In this document: positions 18,302-22,891 of the stretch, piece by piece
Numbering within the stretch: position 1 is the stretch's first letter
How the letters are laid out: each line of letters begins with the position of its first letter
Assembly (NCBI GenBank): GCA_963779755.1
Contig: CAVZZO010000003.1
Span: 1,376,001-1,440,000, forward strand
Length of the DNA stretch: 64,000 nucleotides
Direction of reading: 5' to 3'
Source of the DNA: an uncultured Gemmatimonadales bacterium
GTDB lineage: Bacteria > Gemmatimonadota > Gemmatimonadetes > Gemmatimonadales > GWC2-71-9
Notes under the pieces: model-generated
What the model was told of the DNA's origin: nothing
The model's input: the letters and a program-made list of their open reading frames with translations, nothing else
Databases searched by the model: none
Program-made: the position numbers and the translations under genes

Positions 18302-20080
18302 ATGACCCGCCGCTCCCGTTTCGCGCTCATCCTCGTGCTGCCGCTGCTCCCGGCGCTCCTGCCGGAGGCGGTGCCAGCCCAGACCCCCGGCCAATGGCCC
18401 CTCCCGGCGCACGACTACACCGCCACCCGCTACAGCACTCTGTCGCAGATCAGCACCGCCAACGCCTCGCGGCTCCAACCGGTATGGAATTTTTCCACCG
18501 GCGTGCTGGGCGGCCACGAGGGTTCGCCGCTGGTGGTGAACAACACCATGTATGTGGTGACTCCCTGGCCCGACGTCCTCTATGCGTTCGACCTCACCAA
18601 GGAAGACTATCCGCTCAAGTGGAAGTACCGGCCCGATGTGAACCCCGCCGCACTGGGGGTCGCCTGCTGTGACGCGATCAACCGCGGAGCGGCGTACGCC
18701 GACGGGCGCATCGTATTCAACCTGCTGGACGGTCACACCGTGGCGGTGGACGCGGAGACGGGCCGCGAGCTGTGGAAAACGAAAGTCGCCGAGATCGGCC
18801 AGGGCGAAACGCTGACCATGGCGCCCCTGGTGGTGAAGAACCGGGTCATCGTGGGGCCGTCCGGCGGAGAACTGGGCATCCGGGGCTGGGTGAAAGGCCT
18901 CGACCTGACCAGCGGGAAGGTGGTCTGGACCGCCTACAACGCCGGCCCCGACAGCGAGGTGCTGGCGAAACCCGGCGTGTTCAAGCCCTTCTACCAGCCG
19001 GGAGCGGATCTGGCCCTGAAGAGCTGGACCGATGCCGACTATCGGCACGGCGGTGTGCCGGTCTGGGGCTGGCTCTCCTACGATCCCGAGCTCGACCTGG
19101 TCTATTTCGGCACCGGCAACCCGGGCCCCTACAACCCGGAACAGCGGCCGGGCGACAACAAGTGGTCGGCATCGGTGCTGGCCCGCCGGCCGGAAGACGG
19201 CTCGCTGGTCTGGGCCTACCAGTTCACCCCGCACGACAACTGGGATTATGACGCCAACGCCGAGATGATCCTGGCCGATCTTACCATCGCGGGACGGCAG
19301 CGCAAGACGCTGGTGCACTTCGACAAGAACGGCTTCGCCTACGTGCTGGACCGCGCCACCGGGGAAGTGCTCCAGGCGAAGCCGTACGTGGACGTGACCT
19401 GGGCCAGCGGAGTCGATCTCAAGACCGGCCGGCCGCTGGTGGATTCGGCCAAACTGACCGGCGCTTCCCGGGGCGAAGTGCAGCACATCTGTCCCAGTCT
19501 GGAGGGCGGCACCAGCCCCGCCTCGCCCGCCTCCTACTCCCCCGCCACCGGGCTGTTCTACGTCTCTACGGTGAACCTCTGCATGAGCTGGACGGCCACC
19601 AAGACGGGCTATATCGAGGGGACGCCGTATATCGGAGCCAGCACGCCCTATACCGTGGGTGCCGGGGGCAATATGGGCGCCTTCATCGCCTTCGATGCCG
19701 CGGCGGGCAAGCGGGTCTGGCAGATCAGGGAGAAGTTCCCCGTCTGGAGCGGCAGCGTGGTCACCGCCGGCAACGTGGTCTTCTATGGCACGCTCGATGG
19801 ATGGTTCAAGGCGGCCGACGCGAAGACCGGCAAACTGCTCTGGAAGTTCAAGGTCGGCTCCGGCGTGGTGGGGGCGCCCATCACCTACACCGGCGCCGAC
19901 GGCCGGCAGTATGTGGCGGTCTATGCCGGTATCGGAGGCGACTGGTTCCTGCTGTCCGGTGATATGCGTTCCGACGACCCGGCCGACGTCCGGCCACGGT
20001 CGGACTTCGCCCCCGATCTGGCCCGATACACCAGCCAGGGAGGTATGGTGTGGGTGTTTGGGCTGAGGACTGAGGACTGA
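18302..20080 (+). CDS. PQQ-dependent methanol/ethanol family dehydrogenase, XoxF-like
   Basis: Signal peptide; GHEGSPLVV, ACCD vicinal cysteines, SGGELGIRG, GTGNPGP..RPGDNKW, TPHDNWDYD. Confidence 0.93.
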   Translation: MTRRSRFALILVLPLLPALLPEAVPAQTPGQWPLPAHDYTATRYSTLSQISTANASRLQPVWNFSTGVLGGHEGSPLVVNNTMYVVTPWPDVLYAFDLTKEDYPLKWKYRPDVNPAALGVACCDAINRGAAYADGRIVFNLLDGHTVAVDAETGRELWKTKVAEIGQGETLTMAPLVVKNRVIVGPSGGELGIRGWVKGLDLTSGKVVWTAYNAGPDSEVLAKPGVFKPFYQPGADLALKSWTDADYRHGGVPVWGWLSYDPELDLVYFGTGNPGPYNPEQRPGDNKWSASVLARRPEDGSLVWAYQFTPHDNWDYDANAEMILADLTIAGRQRKTLVHFDKNGFAYVLDRATGEVLQAKPYVDVTWASGVDLKTGRPLVDSAKLTGASRGEVQHICPSLEGGTSPASPASYSPATGLFYVSTVNLCMSWTATKTGYIEGTPYIGASTPYTVGAGGNMGAFIAFDAAAGKRVWQIREKFPVWSGSVVTAGNVVFYGTLDGWFKAADAKTGKLLWKFKVGSGVVGAPITYTGADGRQYVAVYAGIGGDWFLLSGDMRSDDPADVRPRSDFAPDLARYTSQGGMVWVFGLRTED

Positions 20081-20765
20081 GGACTGGGGACTGGGGACTG
20101 GGGACTGGGGAGTGAGGAGTGAGGAGTGAGGAGTGAGGACAGACTCCACCCGAAGCCGATGGCTCCCGGAGCGGGCGTAGGTGCCCAGGCACAGCGGGGA
20201 ACCAACCCCCTGTTAGCATCTCCAGCCCGCGGAGGGAGCCACGGCGAGGGTGGGCGATGGACTGAGGAATGAGGACTGAGGACTGAGGACTGAGTCCACC
20301 CGAAGCCGATGGCTCCCGGAGCGGGCGTAGGTGCCCCTGCACAGTGGGGAGCCAATCCCCTGTTAGCACCTCCAGGCCGCGGAGGGAGCCACGACGAGGG
20401 TGGGCGATGGACTCAGGAATGAGGACTGAGGACTGAGGACTGAGGACTGAGGACTGAGTCCACCCGAAGCCGATGGCTCCCGGAGCGGGCGTAGGTGCCC
20501 ATGCACAGTGGGGAGCCAATCCCCTGTTAGCACCTCCAGGCCGCGGAGGGAGCCACGGCGAGGGTGGGCGATGGACTGAGGAATGAGGACTGAGGACTGA
20601 GGACTGAGTCCACCCGAAGCCGATGGCTCCCGGAGCGGGCGTAGGTGCCCAGGCACAGCGGGGAACCAACCCCCTGTTAGCATCTCCAGGCCGCGGAGGG
20701 AGCCACGGCGAGGGTGGACGATGGACTGAGGACTGAGGACTGAGGACTGAGGACTGAGGACTGAG
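20062..20765 (+). repeat. Array of four 117-nt structured units joined by (CTGAGGA)n linkers
   Basis: Units 20145-20261, 20295-20411, 20459-20575, 20609-20725; periods 150, 164, 150; heptamer tracts flank both ends. Confidence 0.95.
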
Positions 20766-20865
20766 CGGAAAAGTAGTGCCGGCGCAGGCACCACCGAACC
20801 GGGCGAATCGGATCGGTGCTGCCGGAACCGGGAACCGGACCCGTCAGCCAAACGCCGGGAGCTTC

Positions 20866-21330
20866 ATGAGGTACTTCCAGACCTGCCTGCTTCTCCTGTT
20901 GGCCGCCGCCTGTAGCGGGGAACGCGGGCGCGCCCGGCCGCCCGCCCAGGCCGGGGCCACGGCTGCCCCGCCGCAGGTGCGCTACGATCAGCATGTCTTC
21001 GCCGGCGGGGTCGCACCCGCGGCGGACAGCATGTCCAATCCCTACGCCAACGATGCGTCTTCGGTCCAGGCCGGCGAGCAGCTCTTCGGCTCGATGAACT
21101 GCGACGGCTGCCATGGCGGGCCACCGACCGGCTTCGTGGGCCCCAGTCTGGTTGACGGGCGCTGGCGCTACGGCGGCGCCGACGGGGCGGTCTTCCAGTC
21201 CATCTTCTACGGCCGTCCGCGCGGCATGCCCGCCTACGGCGGCCTGCTCACCACTGAGATGATCTGGAAGCTGGTGACCTACATCAAGAGCCAGCCGGTA
21301 TCGGACGATGTGCCGACGGAAAGATGGTGA
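20866..21330 (+). CDS. Mono-haem cytochrome c lipoprotein (cytochrome cL/XoxG-like)
   Basis: Lipobox LAAAC; NPY..D....AGEQLF, CDGCH, GPSLVD..WRYG, GMPAYG. Confidence 0.88.
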   Translation: MRYFQTCLLLLLAAACSGERGRARPPAQAGATAAPPQVRYDQHVFAGGVAPAADSMSNPYANDASSVQAGEQLFGSMNCDGCHGGPPTGFVGPSLVDGRWRYGGADGAVFQSIFYGRPRGMPAYGGLLTTEMIWKLVTYIKSQPVSDDVPTERW

Positions 21331-21887: not shown

Positions 21888-21961
21888 GATCTGAATTGCC
21901 GCTTCGGTCTTCTTACTTCTCACATCTTACTTCTTACGCCTTACGCCTTACGCCTCACGCC

Positions 21962-22891
21962 TCACGCCTCACCTCTCGCGTCTACGCTCTCAAGAAGCCG
22001 TTGCCGGTAGTACTCCGGCTCCTCCACCACCGCATCTTCCCCGTACTGCAGCACCTGCCGTATCAGCCAGTCGGCACTGGCGACCCGGTAGGTCACCACC
22101 CAGGAACCATCCGGCTCCAGGCTGCCCTCGGGATGGCGCTCCCGGATCCAGCGGCTGATCCGGGGCGAGAAGCGAACCCGGACGGCGTCTACTCCGTCTT
22201 CCGGCTCGAGGAAGAGGCCGTCCGGTCCGGTCACCGGCTCGAAATCCGCCCGGGGTGTGAAGCGGCCGCCCGCCGGCTCGACCTCCAGGATCCGGTCCAT
22301 CCGGAACCGCCGCCAGGCCTGCGCGCGCTCACACCAGCCGATGACATAGGTCTTCCCTTCGGCGCTCACCATCTGGTGCGGCTGAATGACGCGCTCGGTG
22401 CCTTCCCCCGCGCTCAACCCGGCATAGACGATGCGCAGCCGCAAATGGTCCCGCACCGCCTGCGCCGGCAGCGGATGCTCCCCGCCGTCTCCCGACGCCA
22501 GCGACCAGCCGGCCCGGTCCGATGGATGCCCCAGCAGCGCGGCCAGTTCGGTCTGCAGCGGATGTTCCGCATGCTCCTGTCCGGCCAGGCCCAGCTGAAT
22601 CGCAAGCAGCTCGTCGGGAAAGAACCGGATGGGGCGGCGGAAGGGGCCGCCGCTGGAGACCGCAACCCGATCGCCTTCCTGCCACACGCGCAGCGACAGC
22701 AGCCACTCGGCATCGGGCGTCTCGCCCAGCAGCGTCAGGGCCCGCAGATCGGCGCTGATCTGCCCGGTCGTGGTGTCCAGGAGGCGGGCCAGCTCATTCA
22801 GGCCGATCTCGCTCCGGCCGTTCCGGTCGGCGCGGGTGAGATGGGCGACGAGCGACACGATCCGGTTCAGCTGCAGCGCGGAGTTGGTCAT
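21962..22891 (-). CDS. WYL-domain transcriptional regulator, PafC-like
   Basis: N-terminal HTH (LNELARLLDTTTGQISADL); WYL domain RVIQPH..YVIGWC...RRFRMDRI; WCX-like tail WLIRQVLQYG. Confidence 0.88.
   Translation of the reverse strand: MTNSALQLNRIVSLVAHLTRADRNGRSEIGLNELARLLDTTTGQISADLRALTLLGETPDAEWLLSLRVWQEGDRVAVSSGGPFRRPIRFFPDELLAIQLGLAGQEHAEHPLQTELAALLGHPSDRAGWSLASGDGGEHPLPAQAVRDHLRLRIVYAGLSAGEGTERVIQPHQMVSAEGKTYVIGWCERAQAWRRFRMDRILEVEPAGGRFTPRADFEPVTGPDGLFLEPEDGVDAVRVRFSPRISRWIRERHPEGSLEPDGSWVVTYRVASADWLIRQVLQYGEDAVVEEPEYYRQRLLESVDARGEA

Follow-up and report, generated by a model that had tools for sequence, protein, structure and literature searches.

Four near-identical 117-nt hairpin units, spaced by CTGAGGA-type heptamer linkers, lie between a pyrroloquinoline quinone (PQQ)-dependent dehydrogenase gene and a c-type cytochrome gene in a 64,000-nt stretch of DNA from an uncultured Gemmatimonadales bacterium (the window; position 1 is its first letter in all window coordinates). 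This array consists of local copies of an interspersed hairpin family with about 40 members, and is not a locus-specific RNA gene. The element and its heptamer tract have been inserted into a formerly compact dehydrogenase/cytochrome c junction. With a probability that we put at roughly 0.55, the array is the product of tandem amplification, by slippage in the heptamer tract, of an element resembling the repetitive extragenic palindromic (REP) sequences and their bacterial interspersed mosaic elements (BIMEs), and is likely co-transcribed with the operon. The original prediction, made from the window sequence, had offered a structured RNA or processing element on the one hand and a non-autonomous mobile hairpin that amplifies within the heptamer tract on the other, and the latter comes closest to the result.

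The dispersed nature of the element is clear from searches of the host genome (labelled G000; 4.23 Mb in 4 contigs, 68% G+C). A single unit gave 31 BLAST matches, and iterated nhmmer gave 42 matches at about 20 intergenic loci, nine of which have at least two matches. Covariance models, which the original prediction had proposed for searching this genome and its relatives, found 41 copies (37-copy model) and 40 copies (57-copy model) in the host genome, and 14 of 39 other genera were positive. Host-genome arrays include ones of 2, 3, 4, 4, 4 and 6 units in direct tandem, with one orientation within every array. There are at least three subfamilies, with common basal stems and a different apical third. 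The element as a whole is about 105-125 nt long and combines an 80-nt conserved core with a variable apex and lineage-specific outer stems. The units are surrounded by CTGAGGA-type heptamers, GGACGGCA-type octamers and members of a second hairpin family.

In the window, the array begins with a leading heptamer tract of 84 nt on the plus strand (20062..20145; Tandem Repeats Finder (TRF) period 7, 11.1 copies), in which three heptamer variants follow each other in the order (CTGAGGA)3, (CTGGGGA)4, (GTGAGGA)4, then CAGACT, and in which TGA is present in all three frames. Unit 1 (20146..20262) folds with -73.1 kcal/mol and has a covariance-model match at G000:C3:1396141-1396258, equivalent to window positions 20141-20258. 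Then come, again on the plus strand, a 33-nt linker (20263..20295), unit 2 (20296..20412), a 47-nt linker (20413..20459), unit 3 (20460..20576), another 33-nt linker (20577..20609) and unit 4 (20610..20726); the linkers were read from the sequence, and units 2, 3 and 4 are each identified by their fold, a covariance-model match and alignment. A trailing plus-strand tract of 39 nt (20727..20765; TRF and sequence) consists of (CTGAGGA)5 plus partial copies. Across the array TRF reports periods of 150, 164 and 314 (scores 835-1174) in addition to five heptamer tracts. The linkers differ by whole heptamers, as had been predicted, the middle one being 14 nt or two heptamers longer than the other two. 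The predicted division into two variants likewise holds, with 2 differences between units 1 and 4, 2 between units 2 and 3, and 6-8 between the pairs. Deleting one unit from the sequence restores the heptamer register, as expected for an in-phase insertion (read by eye). Two minus-strand open reading frames (ORFs) across the array, of 262 and 162 aa, were set aside as coding candidates; they have no Pfam match and are made up of the repeats.

Each unit folds as one rod, and the minimum free energy (MFE) folds agree with the hand-drawn stems and internal loops (GAA/GA and GGA/GGA). Plus-strand MFEs range from -66.7 to -73.9 kcal/mol per unit (z -3.9 to -6.2; 0 of 200 dinucleotide shuffles as stable), and minus-strand energies, at -62.1 to -68.0 kcal/mol (z -2.4 to -3.9), are 5-11 kcal/mol weaker. 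The stem change from G-C to G-U noticed earlier is the C/T difference at unit position 74, with G-U in units 1 and 4. When the whole 831-nt spacer is folded, the energy is -435.8 kcal/mol (z -10.4); units 3 and 4 each make a rod of their own, and units 1 and 2 are able to pair mutually as well.

Orthologous junctions demonstrate the insertion. The dehydrogenase gene (18302..20080, plus strand; a listed ORF with a match to Pfam PF01011, E 3e-64) and the cytochrome gene, its usual direct neighbour (20866..21330, plus strand; Pfam PF13442, E 5.5e-13), flank the array in the way originally described. In 11 other genera with dehydrogenase orthologues (69-78% identity), the cytochrome c gene is directly downstream in 11/11 and the genes abut or overlap in 11/11, so that the proposed check for empty sites found all of them empty; in the host genome the two genes are 786 nt apart. 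The orthologues end in ...VW[VI]F[GA]L, plus or minus a few residues (P, GGGP), with one ending in ...VWIFAR, and these ends correspond to residue 586-589 of 592 here. The host tract begins at the last conserved Leu codon (CTG) and is followed by RTED and then TGA, these last four codons and the stop being within the heptamer tract. A tightly coupled gene pair can therefore be pushed apart by this distance, and the dehydrogenase gains four extra C-terminal residues through the tract; expression of both genes may be affected. Between the array and the cytochrome gene lies a degenerate copy of the second, low-copy hairpin repeat (20766..20850, plus strand; core GCAGGCACCACCGAACC...GGTGCTGCCGG).

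Outside the host, the element is specific to one bacterial family and is present in low numbers. The 37-copy covariance model gave single weak matches in 2 of 40 relatives and, across the phylum, matched 12 of 71 further genomes in the family; eleven other families, sampled with 79 genomes, had no match. With the 57-copy model, the 14 positive genera out of 39 in the same family, which is probably Gemmatimonadaceae, carry 1-12 copies each; the host genome, with its 40 copies, has therefore amplified an element that is normally present in few copies. Of 7 loci that a gapped pattern search found in species-representative genomes, five are in Gemmatimonadota metagenome-assembled genomes (MAGs), on which the taxonomic assignment is based; the pattern-only loci in Streptomyces and Cryomorphaceae had no covariance-model match at E <= 1 and were treated as chance. 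In metagenome contigs a related pattern was found at 22 loci, and the exact 25-nt word of the window subfamily gave 0 matches there. Phages gave no match to the element, and plasmids gave one record, for the heptamer linker only. One of the 57 copies, L081, comes from an unpublished genome (G082). It supplies one row in alignments A2 and A4, one of the sense loci and the annotation of one flanking gene; none of the conclusions rests on it.

Common to the aligned copies is a core that reads TCCCG-N-AGCGCGCGT-YRGTGA ... ACYRCAGCGCGCGGAGGGA, or in shorter form TCCCG-N-AGCGCGCGT...GCGCGCGGAGGGA. The outer stems are lineage-specific yet complementary, and one copy, 74 nt long, has no apex. Tracts of 7-8 nt flank the element at no fewer than five loci in other genomes (L072, its nearly identical counterpart L115 from a metagenome, L103, L107 and L119). 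In other genera, two adjacent copies are often inverted in the manner of a REPIN doublet (L051:1501-1755, L069:598-856, G057 C3:345170-345416 and C3:588940-589192).

Covariation supports the fold. In the 37 host copies 96.6% of cells are paired and 7 of 21 pairs have changed on both sides. In the 57 copies drawn from the host, isolate and MAG genomes and metagenome contigs, 19 of the 21 modelled pairs have changed on both sides and 96.9% of cells are paired, compared to 77.6% in shuffles (0 of 500 as high) and 37-57% in slid controls, on alignments that were fitted to the model and contain related copies that inflate the counts. An orthologous comparison carries more weight and shows that the core is also constrained in sequence. 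Two diverged metagenome contigs (L122:1500-1581 and L116:1500-1583) carry the element in antisense orientation between two genes of menaquinone synthesis (futalosine-pathway type). At this orthologous mqn locus the core arms are identical at 65 of 67 positions (97%), versus 491 of 670 third codon positions (73%; binomial p 3e-7); the apex is identical at 9/15 positions and the outer arms at 45/60, with matching changes on both outer arms. The element is likewise kept in a second orthologous pair, downstream of an enoyl-CoA hydratase gene, where third positions are identical at 217/332, the cores are about 80% identical by eye and one change is compensated.

The heptamer linkers belong to a wider class of microsatellites in this genome. 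There are 544 merged period-7 or period-8 tracts, amounting to 22.6 kb, of which 486 fall outside crude ORF calls. Dozens of different tract units occur (TRF rows: ACGGCAGG 98 times, AATCAGG 62 times, ACTGAGG 58 times), with examples in the window at 20062-20145 and 21912-21977, and tracts are found more often between convergent genes (110) than between divergent genes (41). Among the CTGAGGA-type tracts, 23 of 28 are co-oriented with the gene on their 5' side; 14 of these 23 are at most 60 nt from the gene stop, and 10 of the 14 overlap it, with offsets of -3, -10 and -17, which means that the tract's own TGA serves as the stop codon. At least 13 of the 28 lie more than 1 kb from any hairpin, and hence the tracts exist independently of the hairpin. 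A CTGAGGA-type heptamer run (97% over 36 nt) is also present, at three places and with no hairpin, on a Sinorhizobium fredii replicon (NZ_CP137017.1, 2225654-2225689). Intergenic heptamer repeats that are over-represented in non-coding DNA are described for Xanthomonas and Nostoc in the abstract and headings of Rehm et al. 2015 (PMC4692102), which name a GGGGACT unit for Nostoc, give four units as the preferred count and report (GGGGACT)4-type runs as quadruplex-forming. The array linkers, likewise G-rich 7-nt repeats, belong to this class, and the leading tract here contains (GGGGACT)4, the same unit in the same copy number, a likeness of sequence. Only the linkers fall into this class: the abstract and headings of PMC4692102 cover heptamer repeats alone and, unlike the present case, contain no conserved non-repeat hairpin.

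The orientation of the element bears on how it may be recognised. In both arms the conserved mismatches consist of top-strand purines (GNA opposite GGA), and a symmetric duplex-binding protein would not require purine mismatches on one strand. The top strand gives the more stable fold for 34 of 37 host copies and for 17 of 26 copies from other genomes. The original argument that a G-U pair favours the plus strand is weak: the 37 host copies have 8 G-U versus 6 A-C cells (17 versus 7 in other genomes, on an alignment fitted to the top-strand model), and two of the three loci of the window subfamily, i.e. both loci other than the array, are antisense, between minus-strand genes. With respect to neighbouring genes, for which counts rest on crude ORF calls based on GC content at third codon positions (GC3), the 5' gene is co-directional at 14 of 18 judgeable host loci. 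Isolate and MAG genomes have 10 sense, 2 antisense (3 copies) and 3 undetermined loci out of 15, and metagenome contigs 8 sense, 7 antisense and 2 undetermined out of 17. With respect to replication, the top strand is on the negative-GC-skew strand, by the usual rule the lagging strand, at 17 of 20 host loci (p 0.003), and 11 of the 14 sense loci are on that strand versus about 43% of genes in a tally of per-100-kb gene counts (p 0.008); several loci are within a few kb of each other and not independent, and both p-values overstate the significance. In the complete genome of another genus 8 of 12 matches fit the skew rule, on a coarse profile of twenty 20-kb samples. Orientation thus tracks the neighbouring gene as well as the replication strand, but neither of them strictly. 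Contigs C1 and C3 of the host (2.37 and 1.82 Mb) have opposite GC skew nearly throughout, with a skew minimum near C1:300000, and look like the two replichores of one chromosome.

How could the array have formed? In the account that we favour, the element, together with a heptamer microsatellite, entered the compact junction where the dehydrogenase has its last codon. Heptamer tracts in the same phase on either side of a unit could then have allowed unequal recombination or replication slippage, either of which would duplicate a unit with its linker and alter linkers by whole heptamers. Since in-phase tracts supply the homology, such events would account for both the whole-heptamer linker differences and the adjacent near-identical units. 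The element may be handled as a folded single strand, by analogy with the way in which Y1 (HUH) transposases handle REP and IS200/IS605 hairpins; the one-strand purine mismatches (GNA/GGA) and the replication-strand bias suggest such a reading. The array is most likely part of the operon mRNA, because the genes are co-directional and the spacer between them has neither a promoter-like site nor a plus-strand terminator-like site. Four very stable stem-loops in this mRNA could act as barriers to 3' exonucleases and thereby uncouple the two cistrons.

Several observations weigh against amplification of a REP-like element. No mobilising enzyme was found: the three Y1 transposase (PF01797) loci in the genome have no nearby element, and the best E value in a covariance search of them, with filters off, is 0.14. 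No long parent element was found either, all 42 nhmmer matches being short units or fragments, and a target-site duplication is unreadable inside a repeat tract. For the predicted mobile hairpin this means that the roughly 40-copy family, the in-phase units and the empty junction bear it out, and that neither a transposase nor a target-site duplication was found in favour of active mobility. The gene-orientation bias in the host genome, the non-independence of neighbouring loci and the fitting to the model of the alignments that gave the pair counts weigh against the account as well. Finally, diverged genomes retain the element at an orthologous position, and its core has changed less than synonymous sites have; a host function would explain such persistence no worse than a selfish element would, and some role for the host, perhaps exerted through RNA, is thus a live alternative.

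Another reading, which we regard as possible but doubtful, is that the hairpin is a family-wide module under purifying selection, whose folded strand, in fork DNA or in RNA, would be read by a protein via the invariant purine internal loops, with the tracts serving as landing or amplification sites. If true, a specific recognition element would be tied to the unexplained heptamer-repeat phenomenon. A rather unlikely possibility is a dedicated structured RNA module, in which the invariant GNA/GGA and U/CA internal loops would form a protein-binding or processing site, for example for controlled cleavage, stabilisation or protein titration, and the array would be a multi-site version on the operon transcript. 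The occurrence of the core in 14 of 39 other genera and its conservation above third codon positions at an orthologous locus would fit such a module, as would the purine-purine mismatches on one strand, of a kind that forms stable non-canonical pairs in RNA. The greater stability of the top strand in 34 of 37 host copies, the sense orientation to the upstream gene (14 of 18 host loci; 10 sense versus 2 antisense in MAGs and isolates) and the 17 to 7 excess of G-U over A-C in other genomes, on the alignment fitted to the top-strand model, point the same way. However, the element is antisense at two of the three window-subfamily loci and in the conserved mqn-locus copy, metagenome loci are divided into 7 opposite and 8 same, and the G-U excess in the host genome is only 8 to 6. 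The neighbouring genes have no common function, there is no Rfam relative, and the replication-strand bias (17/20) is not expected for an element that acts as RNA.

At the other extreme, the array could be a functionless minisatellite, a by-product of microsatellite-rich spacers whose arms are kept complementary by intra-strand templated repair and which has no effect. Tracts of 7-8 nt do fill the gene spacers, linker lengths do change in whole-heptamer steps, and covariation can be imitated when quasi-palindromes undergo templated correction. Such repair nevertheless leaves unexplained the conserved non-complementary loop bases and a core at 97% compared with third positions at 73%, and the identical core sequence recurs in many genera, which makes this explanation improbable in our view. 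That the array is an assembly artefact of mis-joined repeat reads is very hard to sustain: the genome is in 4 contigs, two of them larger than 1.8 Mb, the two variants occur in the order 1-2-2-1 with linkers of unequal length, and similar arrays are present at eight other loci. Under amplification of a REP-like element, the preferred reading, the family would still be the first described for Gemmatimonadota, within the literature searched, where we found no description of such hairpin repeats for this phylum. Several bacterial phyla have large numbers of intergenic heptamer repeats, which are unexplained, and the conserved hairpin may provide a bait for the protein or process behind these spacers. 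The work thereby leads to a defined question, namely what reads the conserved core.

Comparison with known families places the element near several classes of bacterial repeats. As originally stated, it matches no known RNA family: in Rfam 15 all matches to the window region have E >= 2.1, far below the cut-offs, six other loci covering three subfamilies and copies from other genomes gave nothing relevant, and the whole window has 0 matches at gathering scores. ERIC/IRU, Correia (NEMIS), RUP and BOX elements are imperfect palindromes of about 100-150 nt in transcribed intergenic DNA, which fold in mRNA and can alter transcript stability; they possess terminal inverted repeats and target duplications that are well defined, and some of them have parent insertion sequence (IS) elements, features that could not be made out in the present case. 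The present element is a similarly long palindrome, and direct arrays on microsatellite linkers are not a known trait of those families. Mycobacterial interspersed repetitive units (MIRUs) are tandem intergenic minisatellites of about 50-100 nt in operons, oriented with transcription and variable in copy number; they are not long hairpins, contain small ORFs that couple translation and lack microsatellite linkers. The array is likewise tandem and intergenic, but its units are long hairpins on microsatellite linkers. Integron attC sites form single-orientation arrays of imperfect palindromes, 57-141 nt in length, of which one folded strand is recognised via conserved unpaired bases, and they carry R''/R' core sites (GTTRRRY). 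The array differs from these in having no cassettes between units, the 33-47-nt linkers holding no gene, and no GTT-type core at the aligned ends. Nor is this a CRISPR array, in which repeats of 23-50 nt alternate with unique spacers of comparable length: here the repeats measure 117 nt and simple heptamer runs separate them. As for miniature inverted-repeat transposable elements (MITEs), the two arms act as inverted repeats, and no nhmmer match bounds a longer element.

The REP/BIME/REPIN elements of enterobacteria and pseudomonads, mobilised by RAYT/TnpA-REP, are the closest. As portrayed in passages of PMC6006769, these too are bulged imperfect intergenic palindromes with several subfamilies per genome, form clustered mosaics with short motifs and are common between co-directional or convergent genes. 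According to the same passages, REPs are probably processed as hairpins of single-stranded DNA, which the lagging strand would supply. The present units differ in being three times longer (105-125 versus 20-40 nt) and in forming direct rather than alternating inverted arrays with microsatellite spacers, and they lack both the GT[AG]G foot and a flanked tnpA-REP gene. Concerning the foot, the passages give as the REP hallmark a GT[AG]G located 0-2 nt 5' of the hairpin foot, where the window subfamily has GAGTCCA; GTGG does occur in 7 of 37 aligned copies, 4 nt upstream of the foot, and the rest have AGAGCGAG or AGCGCGAG. Instead of a short hairpin with a 7-20 bp basal stem and possibly one further stem, the element has five or six stem segments over its 105-125 nt. 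None of the three PF01797 loci represents a tnpA-REP (Y1) gene flanked by copies of the repeat. Mosaics with other motifs, typical of BIMEs, are present; host arrays have one orientation, and three other genomes (L051, L069, G057) contain neighbouring copies in opposite orientation.

No particular gene could be linked to the element. Scanning 54 flanking ORFs (23 + 31) in other genomes revealed diverse housekeeping functions and no transposase, and a conserved neighbour gene was rejected on account of this functional diversity. Adjacency to Y1 transposases was also rejected, as no element copies lie beside the three Y1 genes. One of these is flanked by its own, different short hairpins: a 158-aa Y1 (HUH) transposase-like gene at G000 C1:952982-953604 (L064:1355-1977) is bracketed by two direct 54-nt copies with two short hairpins each. 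About six related pieces of this 54-nt segment occur in the genome, and the arrangement resembles a small REPtron that has no relation to the main family.

The second hairpin family, the degenerate member of which separates the array from the cytochrome gene, is about 110 nt long, has an inner stem GGCACCACCGA/TCGGTGCTGCC and regularly follows a (GGACTGA)n-GCGG(G)AAGCT leader. The GAAGCT box was considered as a common upstream cleavage signal and rejected: permuted controls give 167-1449 occurrences, a range that includes the 512 of the 8-mer, and only 5 of those 512 are at most 45 nt upstream of a unit. The leader is found 5' of some main-family copies as well. For the second family, nhmmer gave two further copies and the list of folded box-plus-hairpin sequences five more (including C1:1442143, C1:1288113, C3:1668327 and C3:1359701), and its copies are located at window 20766-20850 and at G000 C1:1288113, C1:1442143, C3:1357004, C3:1359701, C3:1666873 and C3:1668327.

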